A program made the position numbers. DNA of 4,000 bases from a virus (taxonomy: Duplodnaviria > Heunggongvirae > Uroviricota > Caudoviricetes), in IMG/VR virus record IMGVR_UViG_2703718872_000009, one strand, 5' to 3'. This document shows positions 1-3,000 of the stretch, one piece after another (the first letter of the stretch is position 1; each line of letters opens with the position of its first letter).

Positions 1-3000
1 GCCCTTTTCCGGCGCCTGGCAGCAGGGCGTGAAAGCCGATCCTGAAGCCGTCCTCTCCTTTCATGCGGTGTTTGCATGTATTTCGCTGATATCCCAGGAT
101 ATCGCCAAAATGCGGCTGCGTCTTATGCAGACGGATGCGCAGGGGATACGCAGGGAAACGCGCCGGGGGGATATTGCCCGCCTCTGTCGTCGTCCCAACG
201 CCCAGCAGAACCGCATCCAGTTTTTTGAACTGTGGCTGAACGCCAAACTGCGTCACGGCAATACGGTGGTGCTGAAAATCCGTAATGCCCGGGGGCAGAT
301 CAAAGAACTGCGTATTCTGGACTGGAACCGGGTTGAACCTCTGGTGGCGGATGACGGCGAGGTGTTCTACCGCATCACGCCGGACCGGAACTGCGGGATC
401 ACTGAGGCGGTGACGGTGCCTGCCCGGGAAGTGATCCACGACCGGTTTAACTGTTTTTTTCATCCGCTTATAGGGTTGCCGCCGGTGTATGCCGCCGGGC
501 TGGCGGCCACGCAGGGGCATCATATTCAGGAAAATTCGACGTCTTTTTTCAGAAATGGCGGCAGGCCGTCCGGGGTGATTGAGATCCCCGGCAGTATTAC
601 GGAAGAAAATGCGAAAAAACTGAAGAGCAACTGGGACAGCGGGTATACAGGCGAAAATGCGGGGAAAACGGCCATTCTGAGCAACGGGGCAAAATACAAC
701 CCCACGACGTTTTCACCGGTGGATTCGCAGACGGTGGAACAACTGAAGATGACCGCTGAAATTGTCTGTTCGGTGTTCCGTGTCCCGGCCTACAAGATTG
801 GCGTGGGACAACCGCCTTCCAGTGACAACGTGGAGGCGCTGGAGCAGCAGTATTATTCTCAGTGCCTGCAGACGCTGATTGAGTCCATTGAACTGTTACT
901 GGATGAGGCGCTGGAAACGGGGGAAAACGAGAGTACGGAATTTGATGTCACCACGCTGCTGAGAATGGACAGTGAGCGGCGCATGAAAACGCTGGGGGAT
1001 GCGGTGAAAAATACGCTTCTCACGCCCAATGAGGCCCGTAAACGGGAGAACCTGCCGCCCCTGGCCGGCGGTGATGCACTGTATCTTCAGCAGCAGAACT
1101 ACAGTCTGGAAGCGTTGTCCCGCCGTGATGCCCGTGAAGATCCGTTCGCGTCGTCCGGTAAAACAGCTTCCGTGCCTCAGGCGGTCGTTGCCTCTGACGG
1201 TAATAAGGCAATCACTGAAACAGAGCATGATGCGGTGAAGGCGATGTTCAGGGGGATTCTGAAAAAATGAATGAACGTGAACTGTCCATTATCCGTGCGC
1301 TGGGTGAAGAATTTTCCGCAGTGCTGGCGGATTTACAGCGCACATTTGAGGGGAAAATAGCCGCGCAGGCACAAACGTTTGAAGAAAAACTGGCTTCCCT
1401 GTCTGTGGTATTACAGAAGTGCGTGACGGGCGATGATGTGCGTCCGATGCTTGAGCAGATGGTGAAGGAGGCGGTAAGCCATATCCCTGTTCCGCGCGAC
1501 GGTCGTGACTATGATCCCGATGTTCTGCAGAAGGCGGTGAATGATGCTGTCGGGAAAATACCGGTACCGGCGAACGGTAAAAGTATTACTCCCGATGATG
1601 TGCGTCCGATGATTGAGCAGATGGTGAAGGAGGCTGTAAGCCATATTCCTGTTCCGCGCGACGGTCGTGACTATGATCCCGATGTTCTGCAGAAGGCGGT
1701 GAATGATGCGGTCGCAAATATTCCGCAGCCGGCGGACGGTAAAAGTCTCACCCCGGATGATGTGCGTCCGATGCTTGAACAGATGGTGAAAGAGGCAGTG
1801 AGCCATATTCCTGTTCCGCGTGATGGTCGTGACTACGATCCGGAAGTACTGCAGAAGGCGGTGAATGATGCAGTCGCAAATATTCCGCAGCCGGCGGACG
1901 GTAAAAGTCTCACCCCGGATGATGTGTGTCCGATGCTTGAGCAGATGGTGAAGGAGGCAGTGAGCCATATTCCTGTTCCGCGTGATGGTCGTGACTACGA
2001 TCCGGAAGTACTGCAGAAGGCGGTGAATGATGCAGTCGCAAATATTCCGCAGCCTGCAGACGGTAAAAGTATCACCCCGGATGATGTGCGTCCGATGCTT
2101 GAGCAGATGGTGAAGGAGGCTGTAAGCCATATTCCTGTTCCGCGTGATGGTCGTGACTATGATCCGGATGTTCTGCAGAAGGCGGTGAATGATGCGGTGA
2201 GTGCCCTGCCGGCTCCGCAGGACGGGCGTGATGCCACTGCACTGGAAATACTCCCTGCCATTGACAAAACATTTTCCCTGCCGGTGATGCTCTACCGCGG
2301 TGTGTTCAGAGCCGGTGAAACCTACCACCCCGGCGATACGGTGACGTGGGGGGGCTCGCTGTGGCACTGCAACAGTATGACCGGTGATAAACCCGGAGAA
2401 GCTCATTCATCAGGCTGGGCCCTGGCTGCAAAACGTGGGCGGGATGCAGGAGGCGGAAAATGACGGCATTACTGACGCTGGAAGAGATCAAGGCACATCT
2501 GCGTGTCGACCATGACGCGGATGATGACATGCTGATGGAGAAGGTTCGTCAGGCTACCGCCGTGCTGCTGGCCTACATTCAGGGCAGCCGGGATAAAGTG
2601 ATTCGTGAGGACGGTGAACTGATCCCGGGCGAGGCATTAACCCGGATGAAGGGGGCTGCCATGCGACTGACCGGGATGCTGTACCGGAATCCGGATCTTG
2701 CGGAGCGGGAAGAACTGCTTCAGGGGGAGCTGCCGTTTTCTGTTTCCGTGCTGATTTACGATTTGCGTTGTCCGACGGTGTTATGAGGAGGGGGAATGGC
2801 AATATCTGCAGGTCGTCTGACACAGATGATAAGTGTTCTGAACCCGGTGTTAACCCGTAATGCTGCCGGAGAAATGACGGAAGAATGGGTGTCATGCGGG
2901 AAAATTCATGCGGATATCCGTGGCAGGAGCAGCCGGGAGCGGATGCAGTCCGGTGCGGAAATGGCGCAGGCGGAAATCCGCATCTGGGTGCGCGGTCAGT

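Follow-up and report, generated by a model that had tools for sequence, protein, structure and literature searches.

A fibre-like protein with a divergent CBM5/12-fold knob encoded next to the portal gene of Shiga-toxin-converting and related lambdoid prophages

Gene organization of the window

The window (the whole 4,000-nt stretch of DNA analysed here, from IMG/VR record IMGVR_UViG_2703718872_000009) displayed a head/neck morphogenesis block, recognized from the Pfam and PHROG matches of its genes (Table 1). The initial annotation had placed the gene of interest, herein X, among head genes, and this placement held; the gene for the major capsid protein was located upstream of the portal gene in the lineage of the X-bearing phage. 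The portal ORF matched Pfam Phage_portal (E=1.3e-81) together with PHROG portal families, and the portal of relatives was 454 aa in length. Full-length homologues of X were BP-4795 ORF59 and Lys8385Vzw gp06. The X start codon overlapped the portal stop (ATGA) and the X stop overlapped the start of the adaptor gene Ad1 (again ATGA); the X ORF was intact and in frame, with translational coupling to both of its neighbours, Ad1 being the downstream one. The three genes following Ad1 matched Pfam Phage_HCP, HK97-gp10_like, and Tail_completion_gp17 as well as PHROGs 25, 5, and 347.

No Rfam family was found in the window, and promoter-like or terminator-like sites were no commoner in it than in shuffled sequence. 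A 331-aa minus-strand ORF (1411-2406) and other antisense ORFs were rejected as genes and regarded as by-products of the repeat, since they lay inside the repeat region and were without homologue support.

Table 1. Coordinates of genes and features in the window
Feature	Position	Strand	Basis or remark
Portal protein, HK97/SPP1-type	1..1270	+	N-terminus beyond window start; stop TGA 1268-1270
G5 tract, 12 nt upstream of portal stop	1251..1255	+	Junction sequences compared
X, gene for 398-aa fibre-like protein	1267..2463	+	ORF list; full-length homologues; PHROGs 1289, 2271, 16748
X N-terminal ~55 residues	1267..1431	+	Joins portal C-terminus in fused alleles; sequence and fusion junctions
Stalk, 162-nt (54-aa) tandem repeat, 4.7 copies	1432..2195	+	TRF
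Junction D333|K334 of 189-nt in-frame deletion	2263..2268	+	Protein and DNA alignments to BP-4795 and Lys8385Vzw
CBM5/12-fold knob, L342-A388, four beta-strands	2290..2430	+	
G7 tract encoding invariant W-G-G of knob	2348..2354	+	IMG/VR copies
N369-S370-M371, aligned to CBM5 chitin-binding aromatic pair	2371..2379	+	Non-aromatic here
Basic C-terminal tail KRGRDAGGGK	2431..2460	+	Alignments, column counts
Ad1, head-tail adaptor (gp6-like)	2460..2786	+	Pfam Phage_connect_1 E=8.6e-8; PHROG 40
Head closure protein	2796-3146	+	
HK97 gp10-like neck/tail completion protein	3143-3589	+	
Tail terminator	3586-3930	+	

Architecture of X

Three parts were recognized in X: a putative helix at the N-terminus, then a spacer that varies greatly in length, and finally a CBM5/12-like knob preceded by a beta-meander. 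The N-terminal ~55 residues looked helical, as judged from their sequence. The spacer proved to be a tandem repeat (TRF: period 162, 93% matches, score 1255), in agreement with the earlier description of a module at the end of a repeat spacer, and each unit consisted of two 27-aa half-repeats, namely a helix-like stretch followed by P-x-P-x-D-G-(R/K). Repeat copy number differed among E. coli prophage relatives, so that X ranged in length between 245 and 569 aa by increments of 54 aa, and the N-terminus and stalk had almost no consensus across the family.

Pfam Collagen repeats were found upstream of the knob in 57 of 103 relatives, and downstream too in some of them, whereas X of the window contained neither Pfam Collagen nor G-X-Y runs but only isolated P-R-D-G-R-D-type turns, and X proteins of E. 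coli phages had no GXY run. The stalk here would be built of helix plus P-x-P-x-D-G repeats, while the collagen triple-helix repeat present in more than half of the relatives would imply a trimer. The family consensus of the basic tail, KRGRDG(K/R)DG, was a short X-Y-G run, which extended into a collagen repeat in some homologues. Foldseek matches in BFVD were collagen-repeat and tail/fibre proteins; the AF2 models were monomers built on shallow alignments of 14-18 sequences.

Matches of full-length X to TetR_C_35 (E=1.6e-9), DUF4244, FliG_N, and other Pfam models were rejected as artefacts arising from weak matches summed over helical repeats: no single stretch was significant alone, save one short DUF4244 stretch. 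The NCBIfam search gave nothing meaningful for X, the Phage_portal profile had no match in it, and neither an Ig-like or capsid-binding domain (Pfam) nor a Phage_Mu_F domain was detected. In neither X nor its relatives was a catalytic domain found, collagen repeats and the knob being the only domains detected.

X of the window carried an in-frame deletion removing 63 aa (DQKSFPRG...SSGQCTE) that were found in all relatives examined and that comprised a first CBM-like motif plus most of the beta-meander preceding the knob. The deletion junction had no match in IMG/VR, where the 68 copies whose C-terminal domain was intact were all of undeleted length. A search of 5,426 complete E. coli genomes gave no uninterrupted match to the junction either, and the exact X protein of the window was not on record. 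As far as these sequences go, X of the window is an otherwise unseen deletion variant keeping only the last CBM-like unit.

The CBM5/12-like knob

The C-terminal peptide that had been proposed to resemble a CBM5/12 domain, YRGVFRAGETYHPGDTVTWGGSLWHCNSMTGDKPGEAHSSGWAL, corresponded to residues Y343-L386 of the plus-strand ORF 1267-2463. The resemblance was confirmed at several levels: (i) the isolated C-terminal 77 aa of X had CBM_5_12 (PF02839) as sole Pfam match (E=3e-4), although the score of 21.2 bits was under the 26.2-bit gathering score of this model; (ii) among 103 diverse members of the family, 71 also gave a match to this model (E<=0.01), the best having E=6e-7; (iii) a knob-only profile of 55 sequences retrieved 31 PDB sequences, of which at least 26 were chitin- or cellulose-active enzymes or binding domains by name, including chitin deacetylases (4e-6), the Pyrococcus furiosus ChBD 2rts (1.9e-4), and the ChiA1 ChBD 1ed7 (0.013); and (iv) the knob had the CBM5/12 type of fold, which is small (~45-60 aa), antiparallel beta, and built around an aromatic/Gly core that is conserved. 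Matches of the knob-only profile to PDB CBM5/12 sequences were significant at 4e-6 to 9e-4, and its matches to the CBMs of chitin enzymes extended from 4e-6 to 1e-2.

This small beta-fold was common to the knob and to Serratia marcescens ChiB CBM5, Streptomyces griseus ChiC ChBD (2d49), Bacillus circulans ChiA1 ChBD (1ed7), and Erwinia EGZ CBD (1aiw). They were also alike in core pattern (an aromatic, then Y-x-x-G-D-x-V-x-aromatic-x-G-x-x-aromatic, T, P-G, and W), and the conserved knob core consisted of Y353, G356, D357, V359, W361, G363, W366, and W384. The knob differed from CBM5/CBM12 in that it scored below the Pfam gathering threshold, in that it had additional family-specific invariant residues (R344, H367, C368, K375, and a terminal K-R-G-R-D-G), and in that it was not joined to a carbohydrate-active enzyme, an attachment that belongs to the CAZy definition of a CBM. 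The knob is a genuine but divergent CBM5/12-fold beta-domain, and its resemblance is beyond chance.

A further difference concerned the chitin-binding aromatics. ChiC W30-W31 and ChiB W479/Y481, the solvent-exposed aromatics that stack on polysaccharide, aligned to S370-M371/T372 of the knob (equal-length ranges, no gaps assumed, reference sequences verified). Of the 103 family members, about one had an aromatic residue at each of columns 369-371, and none had one at column 372. These replacements make canonical chitin-type binding by the knob unlikely, as judged from the alignment, while glycan binding via another knob surface would be compatible with the loss of the pair.

The G tract encoding the invariant W-G-G was G7 in 88 IMG/VR copies and G6 in five; the G6 allele, seen in some relatives, was frameshifted and encoded a shortened knob ending in ...TVTWGARCGTATV followed by a stop.

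Distribution and conservation

The X gene belonged to Shiga-toxin-converting and related lambdoid prophages and was present in approximately 1,245 of 5,426 complete E. coli genomes, while X relatives were distributed in alpha-, beta-, and gammaproteobacterial prophages and formed >10,000 50%-identity clusters. Family matches at E<=1e-3 comprised 10,188 cluster representatives with strong conservation, and about 20 columns were >=90% conserved. Knob identity stayed at 49-77% among prophages of Enterobacterales, Pseudomonas, Burkholderiales, Rhizobiales, Sphingomonas, and Caulobacterales. A host-specific adhesin does not behave in this way: for distal receptor-binding domains, divergence between hosts as different as these is the rule.

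Literature searches on X itself, on the virion composition of BP-4795/2851, on collagen-like head/neck fibres, and on CBM5 on capsids gave no functional or structural study of X, nor a proteomics paper on it.

Linkage of X to the portal gene

Of 80 alpha-, beta-, and gammaproteobacterial loci surveyed with a portal N-terminal query, 69 had a portal ORF whose end lay within a few nt of the X start (median overlap 4 nt), and Ad1 directly followed X in most loci. In-frame portal-X fusions occurred in three lineages; those of Pantoea and Brevundimonas, 1243 and 614 aa long, respectively, were made via Pro-rich linkers. The G tract near the portal stop of the window was G5, and a G6 allele in relatives brought portal and X into one reading frame: G5 was found in 95 and G6 in 41 E. 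coli-type IMG/VR contigs, 41 of 136 being thus fused. Phage 2851 and YYZ-2008 carried such fused ORFs of 859-861 aa annotated as 'portal protein', and it is the inclusion of fusions in PHROGs and in database records that explains why databases label X itself 'portal protein'. Portal-X fusion alleles were annotated as pseudogenes in two records, and the G6 alleles could be pseudogenes or homopolymer sequencing errors. It is a speculation that programmed -1 frameshifting at CTG-AAA-AAA-TGA (1259-1270) could yield the fusion from the unfused allele; the heptamer there was non-canonical, and Lys8385Vzw had CGA-AAA-TGA at this site.

The coupling and fusion of X to the portal point to a location at the portal vertex rather than on the capsid faces, an argument drawn from genomic adjacency and fusion. 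In all solved portals known to us, the portal C-terminus is part of the crown and faces the capsid interior. An external fibre is therefore hard to reconcile with the fusions, and this conflicts with the collagen-like stalks and CBM-like knobs, which are typical of external fibres.

Comparison with known systems

The closest solved sequence relative of the knob was Cis13 (All3316; PDB 7b5h), a tail-fibre-like protein of the Anabaena contractile injection system. Its homologous domain is N-terminal and trimeric and docks the fibre on the baseplate by protein-protein contact, the other end of Cis13 being a transmembrane helix, whereas the X domain is C-terminal and the anchored end of X is apparently the N-terminus. 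A matching motif was also located at the N-terminal end (residues 29-53) of the tail fibre of Agrobacterium phage 7-7-1. By analogy, the Cis13 domain and the phage 7-7-1 motif offer a precedent for a non-glycan role of the knob.

The genes of SPP1 gp7/Mu gpF-type minor head proteins lie directly after the portal gene and are sometimes fused to it, and their products are portal-bound. X shared this post-portal position and occasional fusion; gp7-type proteins are globular and internal, whereas X represents a fibre-like family with collagen-like stalks and no Phage_Mu_F match.

SPP1 gp12 and phi29 gp8.5 are trimeric repeat stalks whose genes belong to the head module, with a presumed role in adhesion (PMC7602432). 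The collagen stalks of X relatives resemble them, although no sequence or fold relationship to X was found; they occupy capsid hexamer or quasi-3-fold sites and are encoded beside the capsid gene, whereas X is portal-coupled.

T4 Hoc is a non-essential outward adhesion module on the head, and its likeness to X had been suggested by analogy in the initial annotation. The analogy did not survive: Hoc is monomeric, consists of Ig-like domains, and occupies hexamer centres, whereas X has no Ig domain, another fold, and another genomic context, being coupled to the portal in most loci and fused to it in others.

Interpretation

We tentatively favour, at slightly less than even confidence, the reading of X as a conserved phage structural protein and portal-vertex accessory that displays a knob on a stalk for a conserved non-chitin target. 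The N-terminus would be the anchored end, located at the portal C-terminal tail in the natural fusions, and the stalk would hold the knob away from this anchor. The knob would act as a binding or assembly module for a target common to phages of very different Proteobacteria, and candidates for this target are (i) a phage or self (trimer) contact and (ii) a universal polymer, e.g., a peptidoglycan-type GlcNAc glycan; it would be neither chitin nor a strain-specific surface polysaccharide. X of E. coli phages may form trimers, and X would dock on the portal and be part of the virion; any ligand is likewise inferred.

It is possible, though rather unlikely, that the knob is a trimerization/registration domain or a docking foot (as in foldon, collagen NC1, or Cis13) with no external ligand, the fold serving as a structural brick. 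Such a role is consistent with the very high conservation for a 50-residue domain, flanking X-Y-G triplets included, with the position of the domain between collagen segments in some homologues, with the tandem arrays of up to 37 knob-type domains in giant fibre-like proteins, and with the homologous baseplate-binding trimer of Cis13. However, the N-terminal helix is equally possible as the trimerization element, the anchored end in fused alleles is the N-terminus rather than the knob, and monomer models cannot reveal a trimer interface.

The initial annotation had proposed, as a hypothesis, that X is a capsid-displayed adhesin, and in its full form, i.e., a capsid-surface decoration fibre similar to Hoc, SPP1 gp12, or phi29 gp8.5 whose knob binds host or environmental polysaccharide and raises adsorption, this reading appears unlikely. 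What stands of it is the CBM5/12-fold module, a carbohydrate-binding fold, together with the repeat or collagen-like stalks of varying copy number typical of exposed fibres, the position of the X gene inside the head module, and the precedent of collagen-like gp12 and head fibres, which are adhesion-related decorations (PMC7602432). Against it, the canonical binding aromatics were absent in the window and in ~99% of the family, the knob was strongly conserved across hosts with unrelated surface glycans, X was coupled or fused to the portal and not to the major capsid protein, and X lacked an Ig-like or capsid-binding domain. X as a capsid-displayed sugar adhesin is accordingly unproven.

Similarly doubtful is the reading in which X, as an internal protein of the head, is attached to the portal crown (compare SPP1 gp7/Mu F-type proteins and the P22 portal barrel) and either stays there or passes into the periplasm together with the DNA, peptidoglycan being a possible ligand of the knob in that compartment. 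In its favour are the fusions that join X in frame, via flexible Pro-rich linkers, to the portal C-terminus of three lineages, the internal position of portal C-termini in solved structures, the basic C-terminal tail of X, and the conservation of the knob across Proteobacteria, hosts that share one peptidoglycan chemotype. It is opposed by the following points: collagen-like fibres are not known from the interior of capsids, covalent fusion precludes the ejection of X, siphophage envelope penetration uses the tape-measure protein, and the fusion alleles may be non-functional. A crown-tethered stalk, collagen-like or of helical repeats, with its knob at up to 12 copies per virion (e.g., four trimers), acting on packaged DNA or freed into the periplasm to bind peptidoglycan as the genome is delivered, is likewise improbable.

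That the knob is a chance motif in what is left of a decaying and no longer functional prophage gene is strongly disfavoured and barely credible: the sub-threshold Pfam score, the unique 63-aa deletion of the window allele, and the frameshifts in some relatives are outweighed by consistent family-level profile and fold evidence, by the strong conservation over 10,188 cluster representatives, and by an ORF that is intact, in frame, and coupled on both sides.

Recognition of X as a fibre-like protein in its own right, bearing a CBM5/12-fold knob, puts right an annotation error that is widespread. It also provides a candidate portal-vertex accessory, amenable to testing, in phages of medical relevance. 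If X is merely a neck or head fibre, it would be one more case of a known theme. Should the knob bind a universal envelope polymer, or should X prove internal, X would be a new element in siphophage head-host or head-DNA interaction, and a crown-tethered internal X, if true, would represent a type of head component not described for siphophages.

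Gene order and genetic context of X

The window was a head-to-neck segment from a BP-4795/Lys8385Vzw/Stx-phage-type lambdoid prophage of E. coli (92–97% nucleotide identity), and it encoded X, a fibre-like protein, between the portal and the head-tail adaptor Ad1. Complete relatives displayed the order TerS, TerL, 645-aa protease-capsid fusion, small ORF, portal, X, Ad1, and onward; therefore, the initial annotation correctly placed X among head genes, but the major capsid gene did not adjoin it. The order portal–X–Ad1 was common to three cultured phages (of E. coli, Sinorhizobium, and Stenotrophomonas) and metagenomic contigs, with a few extra genes between portal and X in one lineage. 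The antisense ORF across the repeat region had no homology to support it and was most likely a by-product of repeat codon composition.

Features located in the window
Feature	Position (nt)	Strand	Remark
Portal	up to 1270		N-terminus cut by window edge
G5/G6 tract	1251–1255		
Portal end	1259–1270		CTG-AAA-AAA-TGA
X, repeat protein	1267–2463	plus	398 aa
Antisense ORF	1411–2406	minus	331 aa
54-aa repeats of X	1432–2195		
Deletion site in X	~2265/2266 (2263–2268)		189 nt, in-frame
Knob of X	2290–2430		L342–A388
G7 tract	2348–2354		
Ad1 head-tail adaptor	2460–2786		
Head closure protein	2796–3146		
HK97 gp10-like protein	3143–3589		
Tail terminator	3586–3930		

Architecture of the X family

An exhaustive profile search yielded 10,188 cluster representatives of the X family at E ≤ 1e-3 and 5,860 at E ≤ 1e-10. 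X typically had the layout N-terminal helix–spacer–beta-meander–CBM-like knob–K-R-G-R-D-G-K-D-G tail, and its spacer, very variable in length, was composed of collagen G-X-Y repeats (57/103 relatives) or 27-aa 'helix plus P-x-P-x-D-G-K' repeats, the latter being found in the window. The 54-aa repeat differed in copy number between E. coli prophages, X being 245, 299, 353, 407, 461, 515, or 569 aa long; repeat 4 of the window allele had Cys for the usual Arg (DDVCPML, codon 1927–1929). Its structural neighbours in BFVD were proteins from uncultured phages, of the collagen-repeat, 'ChiC_BD', and tail or fibre kinds.

Compared to BP-4795 ORF59 (461 aa) and Lys8385Vzw gp06 (245 aa), the window X lacked 63 residues (DQKSFPRGTYATHQGGLWRAYEKT...SSGQCTE) between D333 and K334; this deletion, flanked by short A-rich microhomology, took out a first CBM-like motif together with two strands of the three-stranded beta-meander that preceded the knob in all relatives. 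The junction had no match in IMG/VR, and 5,426 complete E. coli genomes contained no uninterrupted copy of it. Every one of the 68 IMG/VR copies whose C-terminal domain was intact had the undeleted length, and the exact window protein was not on record; thus, this allele was a rare variant or possibly an assembly error. The knob left after the deletion gave a confident stand-alone AlphaFold2 model.

Fold of the knob and its relatives

The peptide initially read as a chitin-binding-type domain was correctly recognized and corresponded to X residues 343–386. The sole Pfam match of the isolated C-terminus was CBM_5_12 (E = 3e-4; 21.2 bits, below the gathering score of 26.2, for the single window sequence), which was matched at E ≤ 0.01 by 71 of 103 diverse relatives (best 6e-7). 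A profile made from 55 copies of the knob domain alone found 31 PDB sequences, at least 26 of which were, by name, chitin-/cellulose-active enzymes or their binding domains, including chitin deacetylases (4e-6), chitinase ChBD 2rts (1.9e-4), 3wx7 (8.8e-4), and ChiA1 ChBD 1ed7 (0.013). AlphaFold2 predicted four beta-strands with pLDDT >90 over ~50 residues, a model consistent with the CBM5/12 assignment. The knob is thus a known module in divergent form.

Among single PDB sequences, the C-terminus of the X encoded in the window was best matched by Cis13 (All3316) of the Anabaena contractile injection system. The knob-homologous N-terminal domain of Cis13 formed a trimer by which this fibre-like protein docks onto Cis11, a baseplate component (PMC8894136), a protein–protein rather than glycan-binding role. 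In the tail fibre of Agrobacterium phage 7-7-1, the matching motif was likewise N-terminal (residues 29–53). In phage-like particles, therefore, the CBM5/12-like fold is reused for structural or docking purposes. In X, the knob lies at the C-terminus. A rival reading, which we consider rather unlikely, is that the knob serves purely for trimerisation or docking. A few giant proteins carried the knob motif in tandem (up to 37 copies): P0037 (4341 aa), P0038 (1177 aa), and other profile-search matches were fibre-like, with 14 to 37 copies of the motif W-R-G-x-Y-x-x-x-x-x-Y-x-x-x-D-x-V-x-Y-x-G-S-S-Y-x-C, and thus the CBM5/12-like fold was also a repeating brick of long fibres.

Glycan-binding residues and conservation of the knob

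The knob kept the CBM5/12 core Y353, G356, D357, V359, W361, G363, W366, T372, P376, and W384. The aromatic pairs were mapped with PDB-verified reference sequences and equal-length profile-search alignment ranges assumed to be gap-free; on this assumption, ChiC W30–W31 (2d49 numbering) and ChiB W479/Y481, which we take to be the chitin-binding aromatic residues, aligned to S370–M371 and T372. Aromatic residues occupied each of columns 369–371 in 1/103 relatives and column 372 in none; because these columns were almost never aromatic, the canonical chitin-binding platform was, as judged from alignment, absent across the whole family. The initial annotation was right about the fold, but its functional reading was supported only in part, as the knob lacked the chitin-binding residues; glycan binding via another knob surface is possible. 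The G7 tract coded for the invariant W-G-G of the knob; it was a second homopolymer hot spot within the X gene, with G6 in 5/93 IMG/VR copies, causing a frameshift and a truncated knob ('...TVTWGARCGTATV').

Among species-representative bacterial genomes, the knob was found in prophages of Enterobacterales, Pseudomonas, Caballeronia/Paraburkholderia, Rhizobium, Brucella, Sphingomonas, Caulobacterales, and Acetobacteraceae, and in named non-E. coli genomes it was 49–77% identical to its E. coli counterpart (e.g., an Acetobacteraceae genome, 77%; Pseudomonas entomophila, 75%). About 20 knob columns were conserved at ≥90%, in contrast to the N-terminus and stalk of X, where there was almost no consensus. 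Distal receptor-binding domains are usually the fastest-diverging parts, so this conservation argues against a host-specific receptor binder; it would suit a partner that all these phages or hosts share. That X is a glycan adhesin displayed on the capsid, as the initial annotation proposed, is improbable, and the knob belongs to a portal-coupled protein rather than to a capsid decoration like T4 Hoc (see below).

Linkage of X to the portal

With a clean portal query, 69 of 80 genome loci had a portal ORF whose end directly adjoined the start of X (median overlap 4 nt). Two independent in-frame portal-X fusions with Pro-rich (Pro/Asp/Thr-rich) linkers were identified: (i) 1243 aa in Pantoea (locus L174, 2455–6186), with a stalk of ~20 'PEPLPDI...MV..AVS.I' repeats, and (ii) 614 aa in Brevundimonas (locus L218, 4369–6213). 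In the E. coli lineage, the G5/G6 tract switched between separate genes overlapping at ATGA (G5; 95 IMG/VR contigs) and a fused ORF of ~860 aa (G6; 41 contigs), the latter being present (859–861 aa) in YYZ-2008 and in 2851, an inducible, infectious phage. X was disrupted downstream no more often in G6 (6/30) than in G5 (8/52) alleles. The G5/G6 variation may be real, phase-variable, or a sequencing error. The same G-run was also Shine-Dalgarno-like for X, whose start codon overlapped the portal end; speculatively, a −1 slip of P-site tRNA-Lys at the portal stop would read ATG and join portal to X.

The independent in-frame fusions join the N-terminus of X to the portal's C-terminal tail, and these fusions, read from sequence, are the only evidence here on the physical location of X. 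In solved portals, to our knowledge, this tail is part of the crown and so located within the capsid, which conflicts with the external position expected for collagen-like, CBM-tipped fibres. An internal, portal-tethered X, whose location would overlap that of our preferred reading, is accordingly conceivable but doubtful. We tentatively favour X as a portal-vertex accessory fibre whose CBM5/12-fold knob would bind a conserved partner, at somewhat less than even confidence.

X was labelled 'portal protein' or 'hypothetical protein' in public records: RefSeq E. coli genomes and phage records call its gene 'phage portal protein', and portal is also the label of PHROGs 1289 and 2271. X has no portal domain, this label seems to derive from ORFs in which portal and X are fused, and nothing on the function of X was found in the literature. 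The X family, though very widespread among phages, is unstudied, and databases mislabel it.
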